Source of the DNA: Lophium mytilinum
Taxonomy: Eukaryota
NCBI GenBank assembly: GCA_010093605.1
Contig: MU004190.1
Span: 1,633,599-1,697,598, forward strand
DNA: 64,000 nucleotides
Reading direction: 5' to 3'
Shown here: one piece after another, positions 1,657 to 64,000 of the stretch
Layout of the letters: each line of letters begins with the position of its first letter
Position numbering within the stretch: position 1 is the first letter of the stretch
Notes under the pieces: model-generated
Databases searched by the model: none
Seen by the model: the letters and a program-made list of their open reading frames with translations, nothing else
What the model was told of the DNA's origin: nothing
Made by a program: the position numbers and the translations under genes

Positions 1657-4012
1657 ATGCCTTCCGACAAAGATCTCTGCATCAATTGCAAAGCAATAAA
1701 CGTCGAGACTTTATCCGCTCCGGGAGGGTTTTGGGTGCGACGAGCAGATCTCCACCGTCAATGCTGCCTCTGCGCTTTCATTGAGAATAAGGTATTTAGA
1801 TTTGATAGAGGAGTGAAAGAGATTGCCCTTCGTTTGAAGTCTCATTTTGATGGGGCGGTCATGTTAGAGATGGGCGGGACCGAGTTCAACATTGGCACGT
1901 TAGAAGGTAAGGTTTCTCACATTTTCAGACCATAGCCATCAATTTGTACACATTCTACACCACTACGTGTGGTACTTGGGGTATTTCTAGATTTTGCAGG
2001 TATCGCCGCTCTCGAATCGTACGTCTTAAGATTCTGCTGTCTAGAGATGGCCTGGCGCGCTGGTTTTTTGTTCATATTGAAGAAGTCCTGTCTCAACTTT
2101 ATCTTCAAAACCTCATCGAGGCACTCAACACCATGGCGGATGTACGTACCGCAGGTGCTGATAAACAAGGTCAGTCACAGTGGAGATGGATATCCACTGC
2201 CATTTAACTTATCAGCTACCTACTGGGCAGGCTCCTCCTCACAGTGGTATTGGGCGTGCAAACGCCTAAACTTTTTACATCCCGTTTGCAATGTTGAAGC
2301 CTATAGATATTTACAGACTCATGGCCTGTAGCGCGGTAGTGTACAATGTCTGTTAGTATGATGGTAGCTTACGAGAAGTAGATGATCCAGCTACCCGCTT
2401 CAAAGTACCTGTCTACAGAAGGCCCACAAATACCAGATCTCCTGAGACATTTGCGATGGCTAAACGCTGGATCCAACAATGCGCCTCGAACCATGATTGT
2501 GACAGGGTTTTCAAAACCAACGTAAACTCCGGAATCCGCCCAAGTCGTCTTATCGACGTTTTGGCATTTGGTCTATCCTGCCTGGACGCCCAGTTGATTG
2601 ACACCAGGAGCCTAAGCCGTTGCCCTCAATACATCACCTTAAGTTATTGCTGGGGACCTCCTTCGTCGCACAGCTATACCACTACTCGCGCGAACTTCGA
2701 AGAGCGGCGAAGGAGGATCAAATACGAGGACCTTCCTCAAACCTTCCGCGATGCTATCACTATCACAAGAGAGATGGGAGAACGGTACCTCTGGGCCGAT
2801 GCAATCTGCATCATTCAACAAGATGAGGACGACTGGGAGGTTGAATCTAAAACAATGGGCTCGATATATGCTAACGCGCTGGTATCAATAGCAGCAGAAG
2901 ACAGCAAAGATAGCCACGGCGGTTGCTTCAGAGATATTACTGGACCAGAAATCCCGGACCTTATAAGATTAGAAAGCGAGGTCAGCTACGGTAAAACTAG
3001 TTGTTTGCTGCTATTCTATGATCACCTAAGCTTTTACACTCGTAACTTAAGCAACATCCCGCTTCGAAAACGTGCATGGGCTATGCAAGAGAGCATCCTG
3101 CCTCGACGAATCCTGCACTACACCGCGTCGCAACTATATTGGGAGTGCCGGAAAGTAGTATTGGCAGAGGATGGTCTACCTCGGTATGACGTGCCGCCAA
3201 ACGCCTTCTTTCTTCGCCTAAGGGCATTCTCCAATGCCTTTACGCCTAGGGACGAGTCAAAACCCATCACCGTGCAATCTTCATTCGTTTTATGGTACAA
3301 ACTCGTTCTTGATGACTACTTTGAAAGATTCCTCACTTTCCCCGAAGACGTGTTACCAGCCATTGCCGGCATTGCTACCTTAATTCACCGGTCACTGCAA
3401 TGCCGCTACATCGCCGGCATCTGGGCTGAGAACATTGGGTACGGATTGAGCTGGAGCATGCCGGTCGGCTTCGCGTCCCTCCCTCAACCGTCAACGTACC
3501 TGGGGCCCTCTTTCTCTTGGGTAGCGCGGTGTGAGCGTAAAAGCTACCCTCGCTACTTCAAATCCCCTGTAAAACTTCAGGAATCTCACGTCAAGCTCAC
3601 CGGCCCCGATCCGTTCGGTCGAATCAACGGCGCGTGGATTAGAGTCAAAGGGCGAATGAAGATTGCTCCGCGATTGCCTGGTACGAAGAGAGGCTCTCTA
3701 CCAAGCGGAGACCGGACTCGCTCGAACAAGTCAATTGTTCGAACCTCCATCGATGGACAGCTTTTGGTGGCTTGTTTTGATGGTGAGCACCCCGCGTCGT
3801 CCATGGAAGAGTGGTGCTACTTCGACCTCGGAGATGAGAAACACCTTATACTTGTACCGAAACGCGACGAAAATCACAATGGCTGGGTACGAGTTGGACT
3901 TGTCGAGCCGTCGGGCGAGTACTTGATTGGTAAGTCAGACGGAGAGATACATACTATCGAAGGGTGGTCATGGGATGATGGGTGGGAAGAGAAGGACATC
4001 ATCATCTATTAA
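1657..4012 (+). CDS. HET-domain (heterokaryon incompatibility-like) protein
   Basis: ORF 2456-4012 has RLIDV, YITLSYCWG, LPQTFRDAI, YLWADAICIIQ, MGSIYANA and RAWAMQE motifs. Probable first exon 1657-1906 (LCINC...CCLC) spliced to ~2382 (DDPA...). Confidence 0.9.
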
Positions 4013-8898: not shown

Positions 8899-11800
8899 TA
8901 TCTTGATAGCAGTGTTGTAAAAGCAAGGCATACGAACCCCATCACCCTTGGTTGAGGTCCTATAGCATGCTGTTAGCCATCTAGATGCGACGGAACGTGC
9001 TTTGCTTAAGCTTACGGCACGTCATATGGCAGAAACGCAACGTGGAGAGGCTGGGTTCGCAAGTCGGCCATTGTAAAGAGGGGATGGTGAGAACAGCGAG
9101 GGCAACAACGACGAGCAATATACACATAACACCGCGGTCCATGCCGAGTGAGGCGCGAAAGATGAAGAAATCAGTTACCTTTAAGCCGCCGGTAGGGACG
9201 CCCACGCCGCATGCAAAGAAGCGCAAGCCCGCGGCGAACGAAGCCTCGAGACGCCGCTCCCGCTCCGAGACCCCACTCGAGGACATTGACGGTGGCTAGC
9301 AGGATTACGTACCCCGGTGATGACTTGCTGAGGCCTATCAGCCCGTACAACATAGTGTCTATAGCGGTAATGGTGATCCTTAAGCCAGATGGAATTACAG
9401 ATTTCTAAGTACAGTGTTGCAAATTGAGGTTTAGCAGACCTGTCAGATATGGCACCGTATGGGGTCCGCCAGGGTATGCTTGATACCTTGTAATTTCAGA
9501 GCGCAGTGGATTACAGATTAGAATCGAGGTTCCAAATCTTCGAATCGCGGTGCGGCTGGAGTAGTCCGTAGAAGTGTTGCCTTCTTCTTATTCCACTTCT
9601 TCTTATTCCTCTTCTTCTTATTCCTCTTCTTCTCAATCCTCTGTTCTTAATTCTCTTCTTCTTGTTTCAACCGTAATATGCTACTTCGCTCTCTTTCCAA
9701 GCAGTCTCCATTCTTCTATCCCTTCTTGTTCTCATTGTAACCCAGTCTTCCACTCGTCCCCTTATCTGTATTTAACCGATGCACATCTCGCATACGTGGA
9801 TCCCTGGGGCTCGTTCGAAGGCAGCTCGGAGGTAGATACTGTACCTGTGGCATAAGTTAGTCTCAAAACACTCATGTCTTTGAAAACAACCCCGAGGGCA
9901 TCTGTAATTCTGGGTTCTGAGCATCGCAGCATGTGGATGATGCATGGCAAATATCAAAACTTCTGAGAGCAGCTTAGCATCTCGATTGTTCGCCGGTGAC
10001 GCCAGCACCCTGTTAGTAGACTGGATGAACGTCCCGCACGTTCAGTGATTATTATCGTGCCCAAAGGCGTTCATTGTCTGTTCGAATCCTCGTCTGAGCC
10101 CGTGTGCTTGTCACAGTTTCACCAAGAGCTTTGAGGGGTCTTGCTGGCGTTGCGGGCCGGATTCCACCAGCAGTTTAGTTCGAAATGGGACGCCGAGTCG
10201 TCTGCCTTGACGAAACTTCAAGTTGCTACCCCTACCTGAGTCTGTCAGTTTCCTGACATGCCACATGCCCAGGCTTGCCAAAGCCAATCTAGAGTGACTC
10301 TAAGCCTCGGTGGGTTGGTATTTGTCCCAGGCCCTTTGCGTCTAGGTGTTTCCTGGCTCGAGCCCCACGGGTTCCATAAGGTTTCCCTATTCCAATGTTC
10401 TTCCTGTTGATGCCTGCCGACTTTCCGCTTCGCCTATGACTTTCCGCCTAGACTTAGGCCGCCTGGCGTTTTCCCACTGACAGGGCGTGTCCGATTGTCT
10501 CCAGGAGTATGTTATGACTTGATCTACTTCGTCGTTGTACCACAGTGACGCGTACCCTCCCCAGTAAGAACAACTGCTGGTCTGATTGAAGGACTAGAAC
10601 GTCTGTCTTGGTCGAGGGCCTTCCGAGGGCTCGTGGCGGAGTTTCAAGGTTCGAAGGTTGTTTGCCTCGCCGTCTGCGTTGGGTGCCTGTCTTAAGGAGA
10701 GAAAGGAGCTACTCCTACCAGGTTGTGCCGGGAAGACTGGTCTGATTCAAAAAAGATGAGTTCCTTGACTTAAAAGACAGTACAAGAGCACCTGTTACCA
10801 CCAGTACCAGTATGTTTCCGACGCTTTCGAGGACGCAATCGCTACGAAAACAAGTCCACACTTGTCTCTTCTTGCTGGCCCGGTCCCTGCTTGTTCTAAA
10901 GTTGTCCTTTCGGGATTCCAGACTGTTGCTTCTTCGAGAAGAACACAGGTATCCGTTTGTATGTGCATCAGGGCGAGGGGTGGCCGAAGGCAGGAGGAGG
11001 GAGGAGGAGGCTGGTATGGGAATGCTAAGGCAATCAGCCGGGGGACTCTATGAAGGCTCGAGAGAACCGAGGCCACAGAGAGTTAGCAGATCTCGAAAGA
11101 GCAGATCCCTTGGATAGTCTTGCCTTCATGATGCCTCCTTGTCGCCTCTGTTGACTGGGCGAAGATGGACAGGGACACAATGTTCCCTGCCCGAGGATGC
11201 AGCCTTACTTAAGGCACGTATTGGTGACCTGCCTATCTGTTTCGCCGCTTGTCTCTGTCTCTCATTGTTGCCACGGGAGCACGGAGGCTCAAGGCCGTAG
11301 CAATGTCTCAAGCAAAGTCACTGGTGGCCTAGGTAGCCCGAGAATGAAGAAAGGGGGTGTTTGCATTATGCTACACTATCTAAAGGCTATATAGTGAACA
11401 CAATGAGGGTGATCTCTCAATGCGTTGATGCTGTGACGCTAACTCGGTTGTGCGTGGCTTGCCCTTTTGTTGTGGTCTTCTGTCGCCTTTGCTTCTCCCT
11501 CATCTTCTCTCCATCCTACCCACCACCATCATCACCAACACCACCAGTACTTGCCTATTCACTGCCTCAAGAGCTTCTAGACCTGTTCCAGATCCTCTGC
11601 AGACCGTCAGCGTAAGTCTTCAGGTGCTCTCTGAAGCATCCTGAGCCCGTGGTGTCACTAGCCGGCGAAAAGTCTTCTCCGCCCCTTCTTCACCTCCCTC
11701 ATCCCCAACACCATCTGAAAACTGCTGCACGCCGTCTCAAAGCTTCTACGAGTCCCACTGACCTTCCACAGATGCGTCTTGCAAGTCTTTCGACGCCGTT

Positions 11801-12345
11801 TGGCCTCGTGTCGGGGTTTGTGGGCGAGGTGGCCTCCATCGCCACCTCCGCTTCGCACTTGACCAGCCCATCACACCCAGCATCGAAACACCACAGCAAG
11901 CAGTGGCTGTAGCATCTTTCGATACCTCCGAGCCTCCACTAACGTGTGCTGTAAGTCTCTCGGCGTGTTAGGGACCTTTCCTGGCTCTGACGTTTGTGGC
12001 TTCGACCGTGGCTTCTCCGCCCCAGACTCATCCACTTCATCACTAACAACCTCCAGCCACCTCCAGGCACACCTCGCTCAGCACTGTTGATCTCCCGGAG
12101 GCCTCGTTGGCAGGCTGTGCCTCCGCTGTAAGTTTGGAGTTTCTTTGACGGCTCTTTGCCTTGGCGACATCTCACTCTTTTTTCATCAACACCATCCATC
12201 AACACCATCAACACAACAAAGGTCGCTTCGTCCTCAGTGCTTCGAGGCTTCAGCGGTGCTCCGAAGCACAAGTTCTCTCTACCCAGTAAGTGTACAGCTC
12301 TTTCATATTTTTTCAACCTCTTCCCATGCCCACCACAACAACACT

Positions 12346-14236
12346 TGGGCTGCGTTCTCGAGGGAGTCGTGCTTCACCCACGTCGACTCCTTAAAAACCA
12401 GCGTAGAGTAACAAACATCGCCCGGAGCTTGTTCAGCGGTCGCTTCTTGCTGGACTGAAGCAATGAGAGCTGGGTAAGAACCGTTCGCCAACAGTCCGGT
12501 GTCGAGCGACGCAGGATGGACCACAGCCGCCCGAGGGAGGACCTGGCGGGCAGGATTCGGCTTGGTAACCCGGGTCCGAGTAAGGTTGTAAACGTCGTGA
12601 TTGCCAGTCGCGGCGTAGGTGTCCTTGCTCGTACATCTCTTGACCCTTCCAGCATTTGTTGTTACCGTTTTGCACATGTCTTTTTGTCCAAGCCTTCGCT
12701 AACTTCATCATCGTAAGGTCCGCTTCCCTCGGCGTCGAAGTTAGGACTGCTTCATGCTATTGCGTCTTAAGAATTGGTACGTTCAAGTCTTTCTTTCAAC
12801 TCTTGTCAGCCACTCTACCCTCCCAGCCCCTCCCATCGTACAGGCAAGGTACGGACACTCGAGCCTGGCTCTTTCATAGCCATGAAGCTCTCATGCCTCT
12901 TGCCGAGATCGAACAAACAAGTCGCCGCCATGGTTCCCTGTCCGATCATAGTTCGCCGCAACGCGGTTATTTAGTGTAGTATTGTGCCCCTCGGGGTTAT
13001 GAGCCGGGGCAGCGGCTGTTCTCTTCAACGGCGGCGACGACTGCGGGATAGTTACCCTGGCATCAGCGCTGCTCCGCATTCGATGGCGCCAGTAGGTGGT
13101 CCTAGTCAAACATCTTTTGCTAATCTTTCTGCAGGCAGATTCCTCCCTTCGACTTCTCGCGGCACCTCCACAACCTGCTTCCTCCTCTCTTACAACCTCT
13201 TTCGAATGCCGAACGCGGTACGATCATTAGCACTACCTTCTTCTTTAGCCTCAAACGGTTTTTGGCATACGAGCGCGGCTCCTTGAGAACATTCCAAGTG
13301 TCTCCTACAAATACCAAGCACCTGTCGTCACTGGACGAGGAAATGAAAGCAACATGGCATAACATAATGGATGTGGAGTATTTGCGAGATTGAAAGTGTC
13401 TTCGACTTGTAGGTCGGCATCAAATCGAGTTCTGGGGTACTCGGAGCTACTGTCAAGATGGATTCGTCGTCCCCTCTCATTTCGCCATCTTTGGGTTTCA
13501 GCATCAGGCAAGAACAGTCGAACGATCTTGGCTTCCTCTTAGCGTGGTTCGAAGATTGCTTTCCAAGAACAAAAAGAAGTCGCCCTCTGGTTCCCGTTCG
13601 CTCGTAGGTCGCTGTCCCTACCTCTGTTGGTGGAGTGTTTGTCTGCAATATTGCGCTGGCGAGGCAGCCCGCGCCTGAAGACAGCTGTAAGAGGGCGACA
13701 GACGCCAAGATAGTCACCCCAGCATCAGCACTGCCTTGCATTTGATGGTGTTGGAAGGCGGTCTTGGCTCGGACATATTTCTTTCGGTTTGGCGATCTCT
13801 TCATCAAATGCACGATTGGTTTCGTGGTTGCTGACAGAAATGCAGACACTAGAGATCTGCTTCCTAGGTAACTGTCATCGGTTCTGTCACAAACCTCATC
13901 ATGGTAAGTTCTTTCCGCTTATTTTTTCCTCTCGTTTTTCCTCGACGATCGCCCTCTTCAATCAGGCACTTCAGCCCACCGAGCCCGACTCTAGTAGCTC
14001 TCGCTCCGGGTATTGTAGGTCAAGATCAAACCAAATCGTCGTGCTCAGCGGGGTGTTGGAAGCAAGTAACCATGGGGCGCAGTCGCGGTCTTGGTCGGTT
14101 ACGCGTACTGGGGCAGAGCAGGGCCTTCCTAGATGGTCACAAGAGCACGTACGAGCGACGGATGAAGGGAGTACCACGGCTTCAGCTGCCTGCTCTGCTA
14201 GAATGGGGTCTGATGGGCGGCCCAACTCGTACATCT
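12346..14236 (+). ncRNA. Array units 1-4 (most diverged; apparently one per intron)
   Basis: Ends gctcgtACAtct (12633), gtcaaACAtct (13110), gctcggACAtat (13773), actcgtACAtct (14231); each followed by a branch point and AG. Confidence 0.55.
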
Positions 14237-15358
14237 TTCTCTTTCTGCGATCTCCTTGGCTCTTTTCGATGGGTTCCAGTCGTCCTTGACTTTTGCTAAC
14301 GATTCTTGCAAAAGCACTCCTTCGGGCTATCGGCCTGGATTGCGACTTCCTCAGCACAATTTCCACCTCCTCTCCCAGTTGTGTAGTCTTGTAAGCCTCT
14401 TTCTCATTTCTCTCTTCCACTCCCTCCCATTTTTCTATTGACGTGAATTCGACTTGCTAACTTTGCCAAAGATAATTGCCATTCGAACCTTGCTCTGTGG
14501 CTGAGATCCTGCATATTGTCAGCGCAACTACTGCAGGTACGTTTTTCAGTCTTCTTCTCCTTCCCATTTCCCACTGTGATGGTCGTCTTTAAACACCGTG
14601 GTTCTGCCGAGGCTTGATGATATATACACATCTTTCTGAGACCCGAATCTCTCCGCTATCTCGATTGCAAGCTTTCGAGTGATCAACTAGCTAACTTCTC
14701 ATCAGCAGTGACGACCAGGTAAATATAGGGATGCCCTCAATCCACTACAAGTACGTTCTCCGATCTCTTTTGCTCTTTCCCAACATCCGGAAATGATGAT
14801 TTTGTATATTGAAATTTCTCATGCTGAGGCCTGATGACACACACTACTTTCTGAGACCGGACTTGTCGCTCATTTTCATTTGCTGCTCTTTGAATGAAGA
14901 TCCCGCTAACTCTTGAAAAAACCAGGAATCATCATTCCTTGTGAGGTGGCTGTGGGCCAATTCTTCTTTACCTCTGCACTGTTTCACCCATCGTGACGGT
15001 GGGCAGAGTCTCGGAGGGACTCAAGTCTACCGCAGGTACGTTTATTGACCGTTTTGCTTTCTTCATTCTCCCATTCTCCCATCCTCCAACTATGATGATT
15101 CTTCGAGGCTGTTGCTGAAACATGATGATTCTCGATTCTCTGAACCTGCGATTCTGCGACCTACTTTTCCAGACAATCTTTGCGCGGTCTTGGGCTAATG
15201 CGTGAGAAGTTAGGGATCTTGACATTCGACATCTTTGAAATGTGTGCGCTTTCGCTCTTTTGTCGACTGCATTTAAATGGTACATGGCATATCCTCTCCG
15301 ATGGCACCTTCTCCACCCATTCCACTCCATCCGATATCTCCGGTGCTCTCCAGAAAAC

Positions 15359-16162
15359 GGCATCGCACCGTCGATCGTGGTCGGCTTCTCCATAGCCTTC
15401 TACAGGCCAGGGTGCCGGAGATCAACGAAAGGCTGCGTAGGTAGTAGAAGAGGACCGGTCGCGAGATTCGTTTCTCAGCAGAGCCCGTCGGACCTGCGCG
15501 CGGTCGTGACGCTGGAGCAATACCTTCATTCAGGGTTTAAAACTAAGGATGATCATGCACCCTCCCATGGATGAATCGAGAAGATTTACCCTGCCGGTGG
15601 CTCCAAGCTCATACATCTCCCTTTTTTTTGTCAAGATTTCTCTCATTTCGCCCACTTCGATTGGCGTCTCTTCGAACATTGACAGACAATGACACTAACC
15701 ACACAATAGTACGTCTTTACCGACAGTGCTCTCCGGGAATCTTCGAAAAGCTGAATGTGAACATCGAGGATGAGGATTATGGTATCAATATCGACCTCTT
15801 GGCCCTCTGAATCCGCTTTGCTTCTCTTCTTCTCCCTTTCCGATAAATCATTCCTTCCTCCTCTGACCACTAGGCCGCATTTGCAGGCACGCCCGTATCA
15901 CACCGAAGCAGCTTCCTCATAGCCTTCTTCACGTGGGGCGTGCCGAGATCAAATTTGTCGCATGCAGTGGCGACGGGTCGACTACTCGAATGATTGGGAC
16001 AGCAGGCCATGACGAGGTTCGTAAGGAGCCCTGAGCCCTGCATGTTGACGTGACGCTGGGGCTTACTACGTCTCCCCTGCTGCTGTGGAGATCTGGAATG
16101 GCAAAAGAGAAGATGTTGCAAACCGCCACCAGTATTAGTTGGTCGCCTCAGCTCATACATAT
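15359..16162 (+). ncRNA. Array units 5-6
   Basis: Basal stems ggcatc/ggtgcc and ggcacgccc/gggcgtgcc, each followed by AGATCA (canonical ANANNA). Both end gctcatACA. Confidence 0.65.
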
Positions 16163-16323
16163 TTTCAAGGTTGGTTACTCTTCTTAGTGCTTTGATCCAA
16201 GCTTATCTTCCCTTCTTCTTTCTTTTCTTCTTCTTTTTGTTTCCTAGAGTATACGCCCAAGAATCAATCTTTTCCCGTTTCTTTCTCTTCTTGGGCAGTT
16301 GAATTCCCTCATTGAGATGCTCA

Positions 16324-17298
16324 GACACCGCCTTTACTCCGAACCCAGCTTCCTCCTCATAGCTCCGTTCCAGTAAACGGTGCCAAGATGGAGCTAGTCG
16401 CTCACAGTGGCACGCGGTCGACGATGGCATCGGAGCGGGAAGTAGGCCTAGGGTGTTTTGTCTGTCGGCCCCGAGACTTAGAGCTTCGTAAGAGCCTTCC
16501 ATGCCCTGTGAGTCGACGTGACGCCAGATGCTACCGCACCTTCCCTACTCTTCGTGGAGGCCTACCTGTTTCAGTTCACTTCACGGTAAGACGGGCTTCT
16601 GGCTCATACATCCTTTCGCGTGTTTTCCTCTTTCTTCTCATGTCTCTTCTAGAGGTGATGTGCTCAGACACCGCCGCACTCCCGAACCCAGCTTCCTCAT
16701 AGCTCCGTTCAAGTGGGCGGTGCCAAGATGGAGCTAGTCATTCGCAGCGGCGCAGGGTCGATGATGGTCTCGGAGCGGGAGGTAGGCCTAGGGGTTTGCC
16801 TAGCGACCCTAAGACTCAGAGCTTCGTAAGAGCCCCAGTGGCCCTGTGAGTTGACGTGACGCCAGATGATACCACACCTTCCCTACTCGCTGTGGAGGCG
16901 TGAGCGAGTAAACGTCACAATTAAGCAACTGGTATTCTGGCTCATACATCTTTCCGCCTCTCTCTCTCTTTCTCTCTCTCTTTTTCTTCTCATGTGACTT
17001 CCAGTGGTCATGTGCTCGGCACCGCCTCACTCCCGAACCCAGCTTTTCATAGCTCCGTTCAGATGCGCGGCGCCAAAATTGATCTAGTCGCTTGCAGTGG
17101 CACGGGATCGACGATGGCATCAGAGCGGGAAGTAGGCCTAGGGAGTTCTGAAAGTCGCCCGAGACTTAGAGCTTCGTATGGAATTCCAGTTGCCCTGTGA
17201 GTTGACGTGACGCCAGAAGCTACCACACCTTCCCTGCTCTTTGTGGAGGCGTGAGCAATGTTTACCCACCGGCAAGTGGTATTCTGGCTCATACATAC
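16324..17298 (+). ncRNA. Array subfamily A (3 close paralogues, ~345-bp period)
   Basis: Near-identical ccgaacccagct..tcatagctccgttc and gacgtgacgccaga...ttctggctcatACA blocks. Confidence 0.7.
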
Positions 17299-17765
17299 TA
17301 CAACACCGATTCGATCTTGGAGAGAACCCGTTTTCGGATCTGCCGTTGGTGAGTTTGTGGGGTTTTCTTGGACGAGCGGGCCTGACTTCGTATCTAGGTC
17401 GTATCAACATCACACGAATGTCTGATGTTGGGTGATAGCTGCGTGTTTCTCGTTCATGTTCTCTTTCTTACGCCGTTCTTGCTCGGCAAGACATCTCGTT
17501 CACAGCTTGACGTATTCGGCAGTCAGGCGTGGTCGACGCTACTTCCTCATAGCCGCGGCGTGGGCAATCCTCAGACTCTTGGTACCACCGTGCAGAATCC
17601 CTGGCCTTGTGGGTAACCTAGATGCTCACATTCCGTCGCCCCGAGAACGACTGGAAAGGCCAGCAGCTGGACTCGGAGAACAACGCTGGACTGATGAGTA
17701 AGTTTTCCAAACTCTTCCTTTCCATCCCCTTCATTCTTTTCACGCCCTAAATCGTCTCAAACCCC

Positions 17766-18236
17766 GGCACCGCCATCTCTATACGCCGACTACCCAATAG
17801 TCGTGCGCCGGCTGGCGGTGCCAAGAGGAAAACCATCGGCCTGCGTTGTACTTGACCATTGCCGCAGTGGCTGCGTTCTCTTGACGCGCAAGACCATGAC
17901 GCTGGCCTAACCCAACTCCCCTGCACCGCAAGGCCCAGCTCAAACATCTTTCTTCCTGTGGGCTTTCCATTGCTTCATCCTGAAAGTTTGACGGAGAGAC
18001 TGACTCAAAAGCAAATCCAGATTCTTGAATGTTTCTATTTTTCTGGAATCCTGGCACCGCCGTCTCTATGCGCCGACTTCCTCATAGTCGTGTGCCGGCT
18101 GGTGGTGCCAAGAGCGAAACCATCGGCCTGCGTTGTACTTGACAATTGCCGCAGTGGCTGCGATCTCTTGACGCGCAGGACCGTGACGCTGGCCTAACCC
18201 AACTCCCCTGCACCGCAAGGCCCAGCTCAAACATAT
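17766..18236 (+). ncRNA. Array subfamily D (2 short ~184-nt paralogues)
   Basis: Highly similar pair 287 bp apart; both end aggcccagctcaaACA. Confidence 0.7.
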
Positions 18237-18443
18237 CGACTCTCTAGGAATTTTCACTGCTTAAGTATAAGAGCAGGCAGAGAGACAAACTTAATACTAG
18301 GTCCTGATGAAAAGGCGATTGAAGGTCCTCTCAAAGTCTCACACAGCTAAGCAAGTTTTCTCTTCTTCAGCTCCACAGCTCCACAGCCCACTCAACTTCT
18401 CGACATCCGGTTCTGCGCGTCAAGACGAACTCTTCCAACATCC

Positions 18444-20774
18444 GGCCCCATTCTCTTCATCCGAGCCGGCTTCTTCATAGTCGTGCTTTCGATAGCGGGG
18501 CGAAGAGTGAACTGTATCGTGGTTGATGTCCGACGTGTTTCTGGCTGGCGTCTGAGACATCTTCCCGTGCAGGTCTACCGACGCTGAGCACTACCTCGAC
18601 TCCGACTAGATGGAGAATGGAGCTGACGCACTTGTGGCAGCGGTCAAATGGACGCTCAGCTCAGACATCTTTACTACCCACCCTTGTTTACATCTTCGAA
18701 ACGACGGAATAGCGAAGCTGACAGTTGTTGTAGGTTTTAGGACGCAAAACCAAGTGTTCAGGTCTTGGAGCAGATCTTCGAGAGCTAGCTCTGAGGGGAG
18801 CGCAGCATGGAGTCCCATTTGATGTAAGCTTTCCTGCATCTTGTCTTTCTCCTTCGTCAAGAACCACCCCATGTCGGCACCGCTCCCTCCCTCCGAGTCG
18901 ACTTCCTCGTAGTCGCATGCTCTCGGGAAGCGGTGCCAAAACTGATTTCCGACCTGCGTTGTGGAGCGGGCCACCGCCATGCGGTTCTCAAGAGCCTTTT
19001 ATCCCTCGTGGTGTCTATGACGCTGGTGCAATACCCGACTCCGGATGTAATCAATGGAGAATCGGACTTGAGTTAAAGTGTATTATGGACGCCCAGCTCA
19101 CACATCTCTCTTTTCTAGGCATAGCTGCTTCTTCAGGGCTCAGGGATAGAAGTCGGGAGGCTGACAAGGTGAGTAGGCTCTGGTAATTCGTTGCAGCCCG
19201 AAAGCAGTGTAAGTCTTCCTCCGTCTCTTCCAATTCCTCGGCGTGGCTATCTTTCCATTTCCTCTTCAAAATCCAATCTTCACGTCCCTCGGCACCGCTT
19301 CCTCACAGCCGTTTTACTCATAGCCGTGTTCGCTCGGAGCGGAGCCAAGATTGAGAAGCTTCTCGCGTTGTGGCGGAGGGTCGCCTCGCAGAAGAAACTT
19401 GCGTGGAGCCGGAACCCTCTTGGCCCTCGCAGCGAACTTGACGCTGGTGCATGAACCCGACTCCAGAGATGATCCATGAAGTATCGGAATCTTATCTTAC
19501 GGCCTCCAACGATGGACGCCCAGCTCAGACATCTTCCATCAATCCTCGCCCTTTGCGAAAAGAGTGATGAGCTCAAGCTGACGAGGAGAAGAGGTTCCGA
19601 GGTTCCGATGAGCGTGTGATGAGAGATAGGATACTCCGCTGGTCGGCAACGATGCTCTTGCAAAGACACAGGTGAGCCGAATTTCTTGCGCATCTTCAAA
19701 CGCATCTTCTACCCAACCGCACCTTTTTTTTCCAACGCTTCCGGCACTGCCAATATTCCGAGCCAGCTTCCACATAGCTATGCTCTCAATGGCAGCGCCA
19801 AGATTGATATTGTCATCGTGTGTGGCGGAGAGCTCCACTAGCTAGCTACTAGTTGGAGGCTCTCTTACCCCTCACGATGATGTGACGCTGAGGCAAGTTC
19901 CACGACTCCGATAGCACGACCAATGGTCGAGAACTGCACTAGCTATCATATCAATGGAGGATCGTGATATTGATGCGCATGGCCCCCTGGACGCCCAGAC
20001 TCATACATATTCTACCGGTGCAACTTTCAGACTGAAGCTGACGACTCGAGCAGAAACCTCACGCGCAAAGTAACTATTCCCATCTCTTTTCTTACTCTCA
20101 ACCACTCTCCTTCGACCTTAGGCACTGTCAACATTCTGAGCCAGCTTCCTCATAGCTATGCTCTCAATGGCAGTGCCAAGATCAATGTTATCATCGTGTG
20201 TGGCGGAGAGCTCCACTAGCTACTAGCTGGAGGCTCTCTTACCCCTCACGATGATGTGACGCTGAGGCAAGTTCCGCGACTCCGATAGCATCGACCTTGG
20301 TCGAAGAGTGGCTAGCTATCATCAAATGGAGGATCGGGAAAGAAGATTTGCATACCATGGACGCCCAGACTCATACATATTCCGCCAGTGCAACCTTTTA
20401 CGTTGAAGCTGACGAATGAAGCAGAACTCCATTGCGCACCGTAGCAATGCTCCCAAAGTATGTATCCCCTTCTCTTTTCGTTCTCTTCCAGCCTCTTTTC
20501 TGAGCCTTTCGGCACTGTCAACATCCGAGCCAGCTTCCTCGTAGCTATGCTCTCAATGACGGTGCCAAGATCAAAAGATATTACACGCGTGTGGCGGAGG
20601 AGCTCCACTAGGTGGAAACCGTCTTAGCCCTCGCGGTGATGTGACGCTGAGGCAAGTACCCCGACTCCGATAGCAGAGACCCTGTCCGAAATGAAACAAC
20701 AAATAGCTATCAAATGGAGGATCGGGCGACCCAAGGAGGTCAGGATTTTCATGGACGCCCAGACTCATACATAT
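18444..20774 (+). ncRNA. Array subfamilies E/C (6 paralogues)
   Basis: Ends ggacgcycag(a)ctca(t/g/c)ACA. The last three share ggcactgYcaa...gagccagcttcc..tagctatgctctcaatg..gYgccaagat. Confidence 0.7.
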
Positions 20775-21447
20775 CCCATCAATGCAACTGCTTTTGCAGA
20801 TCATAAAGACAACGTTGGAGCTGACGAATCGAGCAGAAATCCAGATGCTGAAGACAGTGGCAGTTCGGGGAGCGTTTCGCCTTCTTCGCTTCTCCTGAAA
20901 GGTTTTTGTTCTCTCCGGAATACCCGTTCGGCGCGCTCCACACCGCCGATGCGGCGTTCTTGTCACGGCTCAGATGCCATGAAAAGGATACGAGTGGACT
21001 CTTCAGCCTACATTGAGGCGTCCATTGAGCTAATGAGTATGTTTCAACTCGACGAATAGGTTGCGAATGGGTGCTGACTTTTCGTACTCTGTATTTAGAG
21101 AGACGGTATCTGGAGCCAAGAAGGAAGGTAGGTGCAGGTGCGCGATGAGAAGTTGCTTGCCGGTTTGGACGCTTGCTGATCTGAAAGCGTAGGAAGCAAT
21201 CAGTAGCACTGTCAACAAACATTTTCATGCCCCCAGTCACTGCGATCCAGCTCGGCATTCCAGGCTCTTTCAAGACTCTTTTTCTGTCTCAAATACCTTT
21301 TGTCCTGGAGCTTAGTCGATTTTCGTCGATGGCTCGTCTTTCCACTCGAATTTCACCACCGCGGTACCCTAGCACCATCGTGGCACCGTTCAATGACCTC
21401 AATCTACTCATGGCAATATCTACCATGATCAAGCTACTGGTTCCAAC

Positions 21448-23892
21448 GGCACGCGCAGCCGAGAATGTCGGCTCCGGCAATGGCAGCTTCGACTTGTGCA
21501 CGCCAAGATTGATAACATCGTTCTCGCTAGTGGGTCGCCTCTCTCGGGAGGTGGGCGTCTCTCGAGAGGAAGGTTGGATTAAACATAAAATCGATGTCAC
21601 GCGCCCCCGTTCGAGGGCCACCTCATGCACGGGGGTGTAAAACGCAGCCGTAATCGGAAAAAAGCGAGACCGAGCGGGATTTGAAGTTACCACGTCTTCA
21701 GCACTGCATCGGCTTGATGGAGACGGTGAAGGTATTCTGACCCGTACATATTCTTTCGGTCGCAAGCTGCATAGCCAGCCTAGTCTGGAGCTTCGAGACC
21801 AGATCACGAAGGGGCTGTATGAAGTAGATGAAGAAAGAGCTGGAGGATCAAAAGTTCTGGTGAGTGTTGGTTTCAGCCTCCCCGTCATGGATTCCCTCCA
21901 AATCGGACCACGGCACGCGCTAGTCGAGTATGTCTGCTCCGGCCATGGCATTCTGGACTTTTTTCCGGCGCACGCCAAGATGGATGATTCGTTCTCGCTG
22001 ATGGGTAGTTCGTTAATGGGCTGTTGGATTTGAGTTCAGTAAAAGTTTTACCCAATTGCCCAGTGCAGTGGTACCTCCGTAATCGGATGTCGTCAGAACT
22101 CAACGAGCAAGACTCGGGTGACAAGCGAGGACGAGCGGGATTTGAAGTTACCACGTCTTTAGCACTGCATCTGCTTGATGGAGATGGTGAAGGTGTTCTG
22201 ACCCGTACATGCCCTGTCGATCACAGGCTGCCTGGCCTAGCGCTAGAGCTTCGAGGCCAGAGACCGGATTGCTAACGAGGCGTCAAGCTAGATGAGAAAG
22301 AGCTGGAAGATCAGAGGTGCCGGCATTACCTTGGCCTTCGAGTCGAACCTCACGACACGCGCCGGTCGGGTACGTCTGCTTCGGCCGTGGCGTCCTCGAC
22401 CGTTTCCGCGCACGCCAAGATCGAGAATTCGCCCTCGTCGGTGGGCAGTTGGATTTGAGTTATGCAGGCAGCGAAGCGACCGAGACCCGAAGGTCCAGTG
22501 CAGTGGTATTTCCGTAATCGGAAGTTGTCAAAACTCAACGAGCATGCCTCGTCTCAGACAACAAGCGAGGGCGAGCTGGATTTGAAGTTACCACGGACTC
22601 AGCGCTGCACAGCCATCAATGGAGCCGGTGAACGTATTCTGACCCGTATATATCACCCTATTCTCTCGGCCACGGAGTCTTGGGCCTAGCGCCGATGCTT
22701 CGAGGCTGAACTACTAATTTCCACAGATGCGCCGGCAGAAGGAGTCGCGGGAGGAGAATGGCGATCGACACGAAACCAGGCACGCGCTAGTCGAGTGTGT
22801 CTGCTACGGCAGTGGCATCCTCAATTCGCAAGCCAAGATTGATAGGTCGCCCTCGCTGGTGGGATATTGGATTTGAGTGGGAGTGGATTAATTGCGATGG
22901 AGTCACCCAGTGCAGTGGGTAGATCAACCGTAATCGGAAGTTGTCAATTACCCCACGAGCATGGCGAGACTCGGACAACAAGCGAGGGCGAACGGGATTT
23001 GAAGTTACCACGGATCCAGCGCTGCACAGCCTTCAATGGAGCCGGTGAAGGTGTTCTGACCCGTACATACTTCTTTTCGACCTCGAAGTCACCAGCTAGG
23101 CAACGGCGCCTCGGGGTTGAGCTACTAACCCCTTACAGATACGGTCAACCAGAGGCATAACCGCGGCACGCGATATTTGACTTGTCTGCTTCGGCGGTGG
23201 CATACTCAACATACGCACGCCAAGATTGATAGTTCGTTCTCGCTGGTGGGCTGTTCGTTCTCGCTGGTGGGCTGTTGGACGCGGCAAGACTCAACACGGG
23301 GAAGCACCCCAGTGCAGTGGGAGACGAACCGTAACCGGAAGTCGGTTTCGGTAACGACAACGCGAGGACGAGCGGGATTTGAAGTTACCACGTACTCAGC
23401 ACTGCAACGCATGATGGGGACGGTGGAGGTGTTCTGACCCGTACATCTCTCGCTACGGAAATGCCGGGCCTGGTGTTGGCCCTTCGATGCTAGCTTGCTA
23501 ATCATTCGCGCCTACGCGACGGTGGATTTCAGACCTGCGATTCTCCGCTCAGGCTGGTATTAGTCTCACGGCACGCACCGATTGAGTATGCGGCTCCGGC
23601 GATGGCATCCTCGATTTGCACAAGGCGCACGCCAAGATCGATCATTTTTCTCTGCTAGTGGGCTCCGGGGGGTGAGTTCCAGCGGGTTAGCATAAGGGAG
23701 TCGGCAGTTCCACACAGACCACTGGACACCCAGTGCAGGGGGATAAGATCCGTAATCGGAAGTCGTGCGGAACTCGGTGGGTTGATGGCTTTTTTGACGA
23801 CGAAGGCGGAGACGAGCGGGATTTGAAGTTACCACGGATTCAGCGCTGCACCGCGTAATGGAGCCGGTGAAGGTTTCCTGACCCGAACATGT
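21448..23892 (+). ncRNA. Array subfamily B (6 paralogues, ~390-460-bp period)
   Basis: Shared gcgggatttgaagttaccacg...cagcRctgca...ggtgaaggtRttctgacccgtACA (ATA in one copy). Confidence 0.7.
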
Positions 23893-24768
23893 TCTATCGC
23901 GTTGAATGCGATGGTGTTGATGCTGAGGGACGTTGGAGGTTAGGATAAGGTTGGAGTTGAGTATGTTAGCGTTTACCGTTCCGAATTCCTTTTGCTGGTT
24001 AGATCAATGCTTACGTACTGACGTCCCAGCTTCAAGGGGCGTCTTAGATCCTTGACTACCTCCCCACGACCTATGCTAGAGTAGATTTGATTCTGGGTAT
24101 TTATCGAATAGATCTGTCAACCTTGTCAGCTTCCCCGTCCAAATGTTATGCGCAACTTTCGGTCCGCTTTCGCTCTGCCCGATATTATGACGCCCACCAA
24201 TCATAGATCTAAAGAACGTTGTATGTCCTTTGAAAGGTGGCGGGCTTCATCGGGGGTCCCTCCAATGGCGTGGTATTGCGCGCTTGATGCTGGGCTATGG
24301 CCCATTGTCATCCAATCCCGCGGAGGTTTGCGGTCCAAAGGTGTGTCAATTATCCTGCTCCTCGCTGATCCACAGATTCCCGTTCCGTATTTTCCCCTCT
24401 CCCTCCCTCGATGGCATGCTTCACGCAGTCATCCAGTCAGTCAATAGTCTAGGTAATTCGGTCTGATTTGAAGCGGTTATCCAAAGAAACTCCCTCTTCG
24501 GCCCTCCCCTCGTTCGATCAGCATGCTCCAAACCACACCAAACTCTTTACAGCTTTTCCCGACCCTCATAGAGCTGGAGATTATATCAGCTTTGCAACAC
24601 AAAGGGCACTTCGCTGAAGCATACTGTTCCATATCCGATATCCTCCAATGATCAACCGCACGCGCGCAGAGTCAGACACACCAAGGTAGCTCGCAGCCCT
24701 GGACTTCCGCGCAAGAACGTCGCTAGGCTCGGCTGATATAGAAACTACCACGATGTAGTAGGATTCGC

Positions 24769-25005
24769 TCAAGAGCGCCGCCGTAGCAAGAGGTGGAAGT
24801 AGATGACGGCTAGGAGGATGGCGATGGGGAGGAGGACAGCGAGGTAGGACGGCGCGGCAGGGGCGGACTTCTTCATCTCGTCCAGGCAGGGCGCAAAGGT
24901 ACCGTCGGCGTTCCGCATGATGAAGAATTCGGGTGTCTTTGTGATGAGAGCTCCGCTGGTGTCGACCGCGCGGGACGCTGGATGGCGGCAGAAGATGGCG
25001 GGCAT
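24769..25005 (-). CDS. Small hypothetical protein with a C-terminal transmembrane helix
   Basis: 78 aa, ccaccATG context, GC-rich codons, hydrophobic YLAVLLPIAILLAVIYF followed by a basic RRRS tail. Confidence 0.45.
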   Translation of the reverse strand: MPAIFCRHPASRAVDTSGALITKTPEFFIMRNADGTFAPCLDEMKKSAPAAPSYLAVLLPIAILLAVIYFHLLLRRRS

Positions 25006-49899: not shown

Positions 49900-51400
49900 T
49901 AGAAATATAACCTAAGAAGAGCCTCTAGGCTCTACTTAAGGCCCTTTAGATAATTATATATAGTCTTAAAGCCCTATAAGTAGTACTAGTAGTATTATAG
50001 TAGATTAATATATTATAACCTCTAATATACTACTTCTCTAGAACTAATAATAATACTAATACTACTAATAATAACTCTAATACTATCTAAAGCCCTCTTA
50101 GAATGCCTACTAAGGTATTTAAAATACTTTTTATAAAGCTTAGTATATATAGGCCTACCTATAGAGTAAGCTATCTACTCTAATAAAAATAGACTAATTC
50201 TACTAGTTTATCTAGGGGTTTATTAGACGCGTTATTAATAACCTATTAAGTATATTAGCTAAGCTATACTAGAAACTATAGATATAATTAATAAGAAAGA
50301 TAAAAAATATAAAGAAAGAGATAATAAAAGAGGTATATATATTATTATTATAAAAAAAAATATACGCTATAGTAGTAGTAGCTATTAGAATAGAACTAGA
50401 GGCTATAGGCTATAGTAAGACTAAGTAGGCCTATAGTAAAACTATAGAAAATAGGTTATATATAATATAGCCTTTAGAGGTTTATAAGATTACTATCTAT
50501 ATTAAAAATAATAATAAGTAAGCTACTACTAGAAAAGATACTAATATAACTATTATATAAAAGCTCTAGGCTATAGAACCTTTAAATATATCTAGAATAT
50601 ATAGTATTAGAAAGCTCTAGAGTAGAGATATAAAGGCGTATATAGCTAATAAAACTATAAAAGTATTTTTACTAAAGAAGAAGAAATAGATAATAGTACT
50701 AGGTAAGTTAGTATATATATAATAGCCTATAGTACTTATAGAAGTATATAGAGTATCTAAAAATATAAATATAAGTAGCTTAGAATTTAGAAATACTATT
50801 ATTAAGGATAGTGCGCTAACTAACCCTAGCCTTATAATTAAAAAAATTATATAGAAGAATAATAAGAGTCTTAAAGTAGCTAGAAATAATCTAAACTACT
50901 ATACTAGCTTTATTATTATTAGTATCTATATAGAGCTAATAGTAAATATAGCTATTAAATAAGAACTTACTATAGATAGACGCCTACTTATAGCCTTCTA
51001 GTATAAGGTAGAATTTATAGCTATATAGTACTTTAAGTACTAAGAATATAGATATATAGCTAGGTACTATAAGAAGAATATATAGTGCGCGCTATATATA
51101 GAAGAATATAATACCTAATAGTATAAAGTAATAAAACTAAAAAAGTATATAAACTATAAGAGAAACTACCTAGTATATAGTATAGAATATAGTATATAAA
51201 AAGGGGCCTAGCTATATACCTTAATAAAGAGATAGACTATACTAACTTACTATAATACTAGAGAAATAAGCTAGAATAAATACTAGGCTTAACTAGAAGA
51301 ATATATAACCTAGCTATTATAAAGTAAAAAGAAAAAGATAAAAGATAATATACTATATAGTAGTAGTATAGAACCTAGCTCTATACTAGAAGTACTTAAA
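49900..51400 (+). mobile_element. RIP-degraded gag-like ORF with CCHC zinc knuckles (LINE/Tad1-like ORF1 or related)
   Basis: Reverting RIP changes at ~51025-51190 gives QCFKCQ.YGHIA..C, C..C...H and C.NC...H....C spacing. Confidence 0.5.
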
Positions 51401-52031
51401 AAAGTAGTAGAAAGACCTTTATTAAATACCTAGATTAATATAGACCTAAAATAGCCCTCTATTAATAGTATACTATATACTATCTATAGTTTTTTATAGC
51501 CTTTTTATTTAATATAGCCTTTTATATAGACCTTAATTTAGTTCTTCTATTTTATAGATTAGTCTATCTATTCTATAGCTTAGCTTTTACCGCCCTTACT
51601 ATTTATATAGGCTACTTAAACTATAGTATATAGAGATATTAATAGACTATTATAGTTTATATAGTAGGGCCTTATATAGGTACCCTTCTTCTAGAAGAAT
51701 AATATTAACTACTAGCTATATAAGAAAGTAAAATAGGCTAGTATAGATATAAATATAGATTTTATAGACCTTAATTAATAATAGAATAACCTAATAAACT
51801 TACTATTATATAGTATAATATTAATAAAAGCTATAATACTTAGAAGAAGTTTCTTAAAAAGGTAGAGATTATCTAGCTCTAGCTACTAGTACTAGCTATA
51901 TAAAAACTATAGAAAAATATCTAAAAGTATACTATACTATATATAAAATTATATTATCTACTATATAGAGAAAGCCTAAATACTAAAATATATATATATA
52001 TATTAATAAGTGCCTAGACTTAGGCTAGTAG

Positions 52032-63800: not shown

Positions 63801-64000
63801 ACTTAAATATATAAGATAATATATAAAAGTAAAAAGAAATCTAAGATAGTAGCTAGATAGTTTCTATAGAAAATAGACCTGCTACTCTACCTCTTAATAG
63901 TAAGAGAGATAGAAAAAGAATAGATTTAGCTCTTCTACTTAATACTATAGCTCTACTATTACCTATAGCCTTACTATAACTAATAGCCTTATTATTACTA

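Follow-up and report, generated by a model that had tools for sequence, protein, structure and literature searches.

In Neurospora crassa, UHG-like non-coding host genes are described for clusters of box C/D small nucleolar RNAs (snoRNAs) only, and the genes of its 20 box H/ACA RNAs, which are unusually long, are mostly independent, 16 of the 20 being intergenic and two intronic, according to the available part of the survey (Liu 2009, PMC2780460). Intronic snoRNA gene clusters are also on record for rice and Drosophila (cited in PMC2780460). Here we analyzed a 64,000-nucleotide (nt) stretch of the filamentous ascomycete Lophium mytilinum (Dothideomycetes; contig MU004190.1, positions 1,633,599 to 1,697,598), hereafter called the window, in which 24 structured units of 116-310 nt, named A1-A4, B0-B4, S, C1-C8 and D1-D6, lie on the plus strand at 12.3-23.9 kb. 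We consider it fairly probable that the plus strand of approximately 11.4-24.1 kb is one long non-coding, multi-intron RNA polymerase II host gene of the UHG/GAS5 type, or at most a short series of them, the useful products of which would be the intron-borne RNAs, namely three box C/D candidates and a diversified 24-member H/ACA-like family. Splice signals, their strand bias and their spacing to the units are observed directly, as are the lack of recognizable open reading frames (ORFs), folds with compensatory changes and modular duplication.

The predicted gene shares with UHG/GAS5 hosts and with N. crassa clusters I-V a multi-intron structure, short ORFs only and canonical splice signals flanking the snoRNAs, and with the clusters it further shares snoRNAs that stand some 40-60 nt away from the branch site or the 3′ splice site and exons that are the least conserved part (PMC2780460, in its available part). 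However, those clusters contain box C/D RNAs only, two to seven each over about 1-1.5 kb, whereas 24 of the 27 cargo RNAs here are H/ACA-like and extend over 12.6 kb, and half of the H/ACA-like units lack an intron of their own. The fixed set and order of the conserved fungal box C/D clusters I-VI (Liu 2009; Luo 2013) was not found either, the cargo being mostly H/ACA-like. For fungal snoRNA hosts, juxtaposed introns, de-intronization and internal exons that are small or lost have been described on the basis of three conserved box C/D clusters (Luo 2013, PMC3596301, available part). The present locus resembles these hosts in its tiny or missing internal exons, in abutting AG and GT at 16654/16655 and 19168/19169 and in the decay of signals around retained RNAs, but it differs in being a lineage-specific H/ACA-like array, known from its sequence, and not a conserved box C/D cluster.

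Outside the fungi, two further systems are comparable. The snoRNA clusters of rice and Drosophila contain tandem-duplicated H/ACA isoforms, placed in a single intron or in consecutive introns of the same host, and human AluACA RNAs are an amplified intron-encoded H/ACA family without known targets. As in rice and Drosophila, several snoRNAs, including tandem-duplicated H/ACA isoforms, would be carried here by one host; however, the RNAs of those clusters are normal-size guides of ribosomal RNA (rRNA) modification, whereas the present ones measure 116-310 nt, have an additional domain in the middle and a hinge box of non-canonical form, and occur in a fungus. As with AluACA, many related H/ACA-type RNAs would arise from a repeated element in introns and rely on host splicing, but AluACA copies are dispersed retroposons in many genes, whereas the units here are arranged in tandem in what appears to be one dedicated non-coding gene.

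Fungal non-coding snoRNA hosts are thus already known for box C/D RNAs, and what is new here is the large H/ACA-like array. The available part of a fungal snoRNAome survey (PMC5824354) makes no mention of H/ACA arrays or host genes, and in the literature outside subscription journals no account of an H/ACA array within a fungal non-coding host came to light.

Splice signals around the units

The units were collected with the pattern [CT]C[AG]-N-ACAT, which gave 23 matches on the plus strand of the whole window, 22 of them within the array, and four on the minus strand, one of them within the array region; two units were added by eye, one with ACA in another context and one with ATA. Strict donors were defined as GT[AG][AC]GT or GTATGT, and the branch motif was scored as RCTRAC or RCTRAY. 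Between positions 11400 and 24030, strict donors occur 25 times on the plus strand and nine times on the minus strand, compared with 9.2 ± 3.1 (maximum 19) in 300 dinucleotide shuffles, and RCTRAC occurs 23 times on the plus strand and five times on the minus strand, compared with 11.2 ± 3.1 in 300 such shuffles.

The signals are also placed regularly with respect to the units. RCTRAY was found 20-80 nt past the unit end in 16 of the 24 units, against 2.2 expected from a background window frequency of 0.092 (binomial P = 9 × 10⁻¹²), and a donor was found 30-90 nt ahead of the unit in nine of 24, against 3.0 expected (P = 1.7 × 10⁻³); since the units are paralogues, these P values overstate independence. 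The same pattern recurs in lineages that can no longer be aligned with each other (A1, A3, A4, B0, C1, C3, C4, C5, the C6-C8 group and the D group). In 13 of the 16 units the distance from unit end to branch motif is 43-60 nt. Donor and branch motif occur together in eight of the 24 units, and A2 also has both, its branch motif beginning just 4 nt after the unit. Among the 22 modelled introns, the branch motif stands 10-21 nt ahead of the AG in 20, at 33 nt in one, and is missing in one.

A sequence-only reading of this DNA had placed the units in introns of a non-coding host gene with micro-exons and had quoted splice motifs with their coordinates. All of these motifs are found at the quoted places, strand-specific and far above chance. 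They include the signals of the introns with A1, A2 and A4 (Table 1), the 59-nt interval 12718-12776 between the first two of these, the AG ending at 20053 with the 16-nt interval up to GTAACT at 20070, a weak donor without G at +5, and the AG ending at 20424 with the 33-nt interval up to GTATGT at 20458. That splice signals were duplicated together with the subfamily-C units is borne out by GCTGAC, which is present in six of six spacers from C3-C4 to C8-end. As to the location of the units in introns of a non-coding host, the non-coding nature and the strand-specific signals were upheld, and an own intron was found for about half of the units. A good donor, together with a branch site and acceptor of its own, is seen for nine of them (A1, A2, A4, C1, C4, C5, C6, C8 and D2). 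By signals, a separate intron is predicted for each of the three box C/D candidates and for nine of the 24 units (12 when weak donors are included), and not for the other 12. For the intron with C4 there are three candidate acceptors (19173, 19176 or 19196), so that the micro-exon before the donor at 19209 would measure 12-35 nt.

The B units are separated by pyrimidine tracts of 48-159 nt that contain CTCAT and an AG adjoining or overlapping a weak GT site, namely AG directly before GTGATG at 16654/16655, AGT at 17003-17005 and TAG-A-GTATAC at 16245-16254. Further abutting or overlapping acceptor-donor sites lie at 15708/15709, 17697/17698 and 19168/19169; at the first of these, the AG that ends the possible intron with B0 and the donor GTACGT that follows at 15709 have their G in common. 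The sequence-only reading had suggested that close neighbours from B2 to B4 (16325-17298) share an intron. The spacers are indeed short (48 and 60 nt) and have no consensus splice signals, and these units may share an intron. The whole B1-B4 region could be a single 1.7-kb intron from the donor at 15709 to the acceptor at 17438, with no branch consensus near B4; the 90-nt empty intron at 17349-17438 would in that case form its 3′ end.

Where a unit has no separate intron, it may lie with others in a long intron or in juxtaposed ones, or its splice sites may have been lost. Signals persist around some of them; a branch motif and AG follow D3, D4 and D5 at 49-60 nt (22713, 23124 and 23497) and D6 at 125 nt (24017, with AG at 24029-24030).

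Fold of the units

In most units the minimum-energy fold starts with a 5′ hairpin and an AGA-type hinge, continues with a long middle hairpin and ends with a 3′ hairpin and the ACA. The apical loop of the 5′ hairpin is CUUCCUCAUAG in the B and C units and in some A units, and UCCG, UUCG or UACG in the D units. The hinge is single-stranded and begins with [AG]A[GA]A in 20 of 20 units examined, and the 3′ hairpin closes 1-2 nt ahead of the ACA, which is retained in 23 of the 24 units and is mutated to ATA at 22648 in D3. Its context is ACAT-N-N, as in the N. crassa H/ACA RNAs (PMC2780460, supplement 2). The hairpin-hinge-hairpin-tail architecture of the box H/ACA class is present in this fold, and the long middle hairpin between the hinge and the 3′ hairpin is extra to it.

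The paired regions have changed in a compensatory manner between copies. When 23 matches to a covariance model of the 5′ hairpin were aligned, 12 of the 14 pairs were changed on both sides, and 79.8% of the cells were paired, compared with 65.1% after shuffling (not reached in any of 500 shuffles) and 23-48% with the partner slid, the alignment having been fitted to the covariance model being scored. The 5′ hairpin of A4 is a weak match to the 5′-hairpin covariance model R1 (E = 0.058). For the six units of the D family, 68 consensus pairs were 93.7% paired and 12 were compensatory (0 of 500 shuffles; slid controls 35-43%). The ACA-proximal helix of 13 B and C units was 90.1% paired, against 10-44% when slid; this helix was specified by hand after RNAalifold, and the test leans on that reading. 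RNAalifold itself predicted zero pairs on a MAFFT alignment of the B and C 3′ domains. Because of the compensatory changes in the 5′ hairpin, the D family and the ACA-proximal helix, selection on the predicted fold after duplication is supported. The lower part of the 3′ hairpin (18 + 15 nt) does not vary among the D units while the other helices do, which indicates a sequence-specific constraint on this part.

The likeness to snR30/U17 lies in a long H/ACA-type RNA that possibly acts without guiding pseudouridylation, but the hallmark motifs that snR30/U17 carries in the internal loop of the 3′ hairpin are absent from that position here. AAACCAT, which we take to be one of the two hallmark motifs, stands directly after the AGA box in the hinges of C1 (17826-17838) and C2 (18113-18125) and in these two hinges only; this is the wrong place for it, and it is probably there by chance. 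An identity as snR30/U17 was rejected with the motifs out of place, and origin as a short interspersed element (SINE) derived from transfer RNA (tRNA) was rejected because there is no tRNA-like fold. By eye, the units show no likeness to N. crassa ACA12, which has snR30-type motifs (PMC2780460, supplement 2).

Box C/D candidates and introns without cargo

Between the A and B units, three introns of 169-178 nt on the plus strand (14537-15213) each contain a box C/D snoRNA candidate in which all four boxes (C, D′, C′ and D) are complete. These introns begin with GTACGT and end with GCTAAC or GCTAAT followed by AG, and in all three the distance from the end of the D box to the branch motif is exactly 51 nt. 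A spacing of about 51 nt from D box to branch site is typical of splicing-dependent intronic snoRNAs. In N. crassa, intronic snoRNAs mostly lie 41-60 nt from the splice sites (Liu 2009, PMC2780460, available part).

A search of 11.0-24.5 kb against Rfam at E up to 5 gave eight weak matches, none of them to an H/ACA family and three of them over candidates b and c. Candidate b matches SNORD52 (24.1 bits) and SNORD26 (21.6 bits), both below gathering thresholds, and candidate c has a weak match to sR1. Compared by eye with the 55 N. crassa box C/D sequences (PMC2780460, supplement 1), candidates a-c gave no confident match, and comparison of the 20 H/ACA and 55 box C/D RNAs of that species, by eye and by motif search of the supplements, gave no convincing orthologue. 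Candidates a (14576-14640) and b (14793-14855) are alike before the D box (…ACACATCTTT CTGA and …ACACTACTTT CTGA) and have the same flanks; from their sequence they are probably tandem paralogues that would guide the same or neighbouring sites.

In addition, six introns of ordinary fungal size with good signals on the plus strand carry no cargo (11612-11771, 11951-12056, 14391-14471, 17349-17438, 21037-21098 and 21128-21192). Such introns make sense only in a spliced transcript. The leader (11489-11545) and the first two cargo-free introns (11674-11715 and 12012-12053) have a 42-nt CT-rich repeat in common (family D15). By its look, the 5′ end of the host likewise arose by duplication, and the source may have been introns whose RNA was lost.

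Growth of the array

According to blastn, the units form the strong groups B2-B4, C1-C2, C6-C8 and D1-D6, with further links between B1 and B3, among C3-C5 and from these to C6 and C8, between B3 and C7 or C8, and between A2 or A3 and D4 or D6; A1, A4, B0 and S show likeness to no other unit. All copies inside the window are within the one array.

The repeat period of C6-C8 is 370-394 nt and comprises the unit, branch site, AG, micro-exon, donor and pyrimidine-rich head of the next intron. Between duplicated modules, identity is 74-86% for the unit, 58-75% for the intron tail, 48-68% for the intron head and 27-49% for the exon. This order, measured among paralogous modules only, with units above intron flanks and flanks above exons, is the pattern of UHG-type hosts, in which exons are less conserved than the RNAs. 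The best-kept block in the C spacers is GAAGCTGACGA, found in six of six. In the D spacers, the ancestral module can be recognized as the unit, GCTAAC, AG, an exon starting with ATGA.GAAAGAGCTGGA and then GTGAGT; this donor is intact before D2 only, reads GTGCCG before D3 and is absent before D4-D6.

A pattern scan of metagenome contigs gave at least 118 loci. Since none of the 118 among the matches listed had blastn likeness to the 24 units, these are chance matches.

Contigs of a sequencing run, the kind of which was guessed, match just the conserved cores of C-type and D-type units (18072-18092, 18648-18672, 21716-21749 and 23356-23406), with flanks that differ from the array and a depth far above that of colinear pieces. 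Because of these flanks and this depth, more family members sit at other loci or in another genome of that run, which has no bearing on expression. The same run contains short, low-depth pieces colinear with the genome and without any predicted splice joint, which are uninformative on expression and splicing either way.

Coding capacity and candidate promoter

That the locus is non-coding, as had been claimed, is supported. None of the seven stop-to-stop ORFs of at least 150 amino acids (aa) inside 11.4-24 kb has a Pfam match, no ORF with a recognizable family lies between about 7 and 27 kb, and when 12 well-signalled 5′ exons were joined (1,048 nt), the longest ATG-ORF was 49 aa. A spliced RNA without a long or conserved ORF, as in UHG/GAS5-type hosts, is found for this 5′ part. 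A protein-coding gene on either strand was rejected, with no family and no relatives.

The sole annotated protein in the region is a 277-aa 'hypothetical protein' on the minus strand at 21289-22035, opposite D1-D2. It has no Pfam family and, among 5.8 billion proteins, no relative but itself, and for this reason the gene model over the RNA array is probably a spurious call. This is a warning for annotation, as the lone gene model of the locus is an orphan protein on the opposite strand.

On the plus strand of 9000-25000, TATA[AT]A[AGT] matches only TATATAG at 11388 and TATATAT at 22647, the latter being the mutated ACA box of D3. One promoter near 11388 for the whole array is plausible from the sequence, and TATA-less internal starts are also compatible with it. 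With spacers of 48-100 nt, B2-B4 and C2 are too closely packed to have promoters of their own. A CT-rich short tandem repeat of TTCTTCTTATTCC-like units lies at 9590-9660, about 1.8 kb upstream of the candidate promoter.

Proposed host gene and alternative explanations

In the host-gene reading, the array would have grown by tandem duplication of a module that runs from the unit through branch site, acceptor and short exon to the donor, and because the module is duplicated whole, each duplication would add an intron and a micro-exon. From the intact modules (about 9-12 units), ribonucleoproteins (RNPs) would assemble on the nascent intron, which would then be spliced and debranched and trimmed by exonucleases down to the RNP. 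The 12 units with decayed donor or branch site would share long or juxtaposed introns or be subject to 'de-intronization'; de-intronized units might be released by another route, either endonucleolytic cuts or alternative acceptor choice, or might be dying copies.

A number of points weigh against this reading, some of which concern the class of the units. A strict H box (ANANNA within 14 nt after the 5′ stem) occurs in seven of 20 hinges, the frequency in background windows being 11%, and the remaining 13 have the seven-letter form AGA/AAA-N3-A, for example AGATTGA or AGATGGA. Candidate guide-pocket strands are mostly paired in the minimum-energy and consensus folds, and Rfam gives nothing at gathering thresholds over the whole window. 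Because of the seven strict H boxes, the mostly paired pockets and the lack of an Rfam family, we call the units H/ACA-like; by architecture this is partly backed, and membership of the box H/ACA class is not established. The claim that the units are snoRNAs is accordingly backed in part, by the H/ACA-like architecture; in 13 of 20 the H box departs from the canonical form, and no pocket for a target could be made out.

Other points concern the introns. Twelve of the 24 units (B1-B4, S, C2, C3, D1 and D3-D6) have no recognizable 5′ splice site, branch site or both, and a model built from consensus signals only puts them in 'exons' of 259-1,809 nt. The count of 12 units with an own intron includes the weak donors of C7 (GTAACT), B0 (GTACAT) and A3 (GTACGA). 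The branch motif of A2 is unusually close to the unit, and at 15708/15709 and 17697/17698 a single G belongs both to an acceptor-like AG and to the donor after it, which rules out the use of both on one molecule. A transcription unit of 12.6 kb is long for a fungus, and in the available parts of the published surveys an H/ACA-like array in a non-coding host is without precedent in the closest studied fungi. Finally, transcription, splicing, a single promoter, RNP formation and any target are inferred from sequence alone.

The absence of an own donor or branch site in 12 units would also be expected of a polycistronic precursor processed chiefly by endonucleases, like those of the Saccharomyces snoRNA clusters, which have no introns, and of the plant clusters, the splice-like signals being partly relics of a one-unit-per-intron state. 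This explanation, which we regard as unlikely, could account for the branch motif and AG that persist after D3-D5 although no donor precedes, and decay of splice signals is described for fungal snoRNA hosts (PMC3596301, available part). However, many signals are intact and are kept amid diverged spacer (GCTGAC in six of six C spacers), the three box C/D introns are canonical, the empty 62- and 65-nt introns at 21037-21192 need a spliced transcript, and the CT-rich B spacers have no obvious processing hairpins by eye.

To a similar degree we doubt that the A and box C/D, B, C and D blocks are several shorter transcription units, each with a TATA-less promoter. Signal-free stretches at 15.7-17.3, 18.0-18.8 and 21.2-21.86 kb do part the blocks, TATAAG is seen by eye at about 18266 between C2 and C3, and many fungal promoters have no TATA box, such promoters being common in fungi. 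Nevertheless, there is a single consensus TATA-like box, all units are on one strand with a T-over-A skew unbroken over 10-18 kb, and the spacers within blocks are too short for promoters.

It is still less probable that the array is silent or dying, with tandem pseudogene copies here and working H/ACA-like copies elsewhere in the genome. The ATA of D3, the lost branch motif of D1 and the decay of several donors would fit, whereas the compensatory changes between copies indicate that selection acted on the fold once the copies had arisen, 23 of the 24 units retain ACA, variation in the stable UNCG loops stays within UNCG forms, and the intron signals stand at regular distances from the units. 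That the units are introner-like elements, which multiply as introns and not as stable-RNA genes and which have been described in Dothideomycetes, the class of this organism, is very improbable, for although the units are long, strongly folded and copied along with splice signals, the copies are in tandem in one non-coding locus instead of scattered in protein-coding genes, conservation is highest not at the splice sites but in the folded interior of the units and in their ACA tail, and every second unit is without any splice site.

If the host-gene reading is true, fungi also use the intronic route for H/ACA-type RNAs, and at large scale, a single RNA family has been amplified far past the needs of rRNA modification, and host genes can grow intron by intron via tandem duplication. 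Because intact, weakened and lost splice sites coexist in recent duplicates, the locus is a natural series on the dependence of H/ACA RNP production on splicing. More tentatively, and with real doubt on our part, a Dothideomycete may have amplified a lineage-specific, probably target-less or non-rRNA H/ACA-like family into dedicated non-coding 'factory' genes, with at least 24 copies here, in which the unit of duplication is the whole intron plus micro-exon, introns being gained by tandem duplication and lost by donor decay. Intron birth and 'de-intronization' would then be seen live in one locus, which would be the first large fungal H/ACA-type host gene.

Feature coordinates

Table 1. Predicted elements of the array in the window, in order of position (nt from the first base of the window)
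Feature	Position	Strand	Signals and remarks
TATATAG, candidate TATA box	11388-11394	+	putative function; then CT-rich leader 11480-11545 and first donor 11612
Empty intron 1	11612-11771	+	GTAAGT ... ACTGAC-10-CAG
Empty intron 2	11951-12056	+	GTAAGT ... ACTAAC-10-CAG
Possible empty intron 3, weak	12128-12221	+	GTAAGT ... AAG, without consensus branch motif
Intron with A1 (12330-12638, ACA 12633)	12286-12717	+	GTAAGT ... GCTAAC 12698 ... AG
Intron with A2 (12838-13115, ACA 13110)	12777-13134	+	GTACGT ... GCTAAT 13119 ... CAG
Possible long intron with A3 (~13507-13778, ACA 13773)	13218-13845	+	weak donor GTACGA ... GCTGAC 13830 ... CAG
Intron with A4 (13965-14236, ACA 14231)	13904-14314	+	GTAAGT ... 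GCTAAC 14295 ... AAG
Empty intron, 81 nt	14391-14471	+	GTAAGC ... GCTAAC ... AAG
Intron with box C/D candidate a	14537-14705	+	GUGAUGG 14576, UGAUGA 14615, CUGA 14636; branch GCTAAC 14690
Intron with box C/D candidate b (~14787-14861)	14751-14925	+	C 14793, D′ 14824, C′ 14832, D 14851; branch 14905
Intron with box C/D candidate c (~15087-15146)	15036-15213	+	C 15092, D′ 15115, C′ 15122, D 15140; branch GCTAAT 15194
Possible intron with B0 (15340-15618, ACA 15613)	15280-15709	+	weak donor GTACAT ... ACTAAC 15694 ... AG
Units B1 (15886-16162), B2 (16325-16613), B3 (16668-16951), B4 (17018-17298)	15886-17298	+	no consensus donors or branch motifs between
Empty intron, 90 nt	17349-17438	+	GTGAGT ... 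TCTGAT ... TAG
Unit S, 116 nt	17518-17633	+	CUUCCUCAUAG motif, ACA 17628; exonic in signal-based model
Intron with C1 (17766-17949, ACA 17944)	17698-18020	+	GTAAGT ... ACTGAC 17999 ... CAG
Units C2 (18053-18236), C3 (18443-18670)	18053-18670	+	no consensus donor upstream; GCTGAC 18717 and AG after C3
Intron with C4 (18876-19107)	18824-19176	+	GTAAGC ... GCTGAC 19160 ... AG
Intron with C5 (19291-19534)	19209-19591	+	GTAAGT ... GCTGAC 19577 ... AG
Intron with C6 (19743-20010)	19672-20053	+	GTGAGC ... GCTGAC 20037 ... CAG; then 16-nt micro-exon 20054-20069
Intron with C7 (20121-20380)	20070-20424	+	weak GTAACT ... GCTGAC 20408 ... CAG; then 33-nt micro-exon 20425-20457
Intron with C8 (20511-20774)	20458-20836	+	GTATGT ... 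GCTGAC 20820 ... CAG
Empty intron, 62 nt	21037-21098	+	GTATGT ... GCTGAC ... TAG
Empty intron, 65 nt	21128-21192	+	GTAGGT ... GCTGAT ... TAG
Unit D1	21448-21751	+	no donor within 100 nt upstream; downstream branch decayed to GCTGTA
Intron with D2 (21911-22212)	21860-22291	+	GTGAGT ... GCTAAC 22271 ... AG
Units D3 (22353-22653), D4 (22779-23070), D5 (23165-23448), D6 (23569-23892)	22353-23892	+	no consensus donor before any

Surroundings of the array

The G+C content of the window is about 50-55% up to 48 kb, and an AT-rich block follows past 50 kb. At 50000-64000 it falls to 23-30%, which has the look of a repeat block degraded by repeat-induced point mutation that adjoins a normal gene-bearing region. 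An ORF with a HET (heterokaryon incompatibility) domain is located at 2357-4012 on the plus strand (E = 1.5 × 10⁻²⁹). Upstream of the array, GGATGATGC and CTGA are found by eye about 35 nt apart at 9925-9970, a possible further small box C/D-like element.

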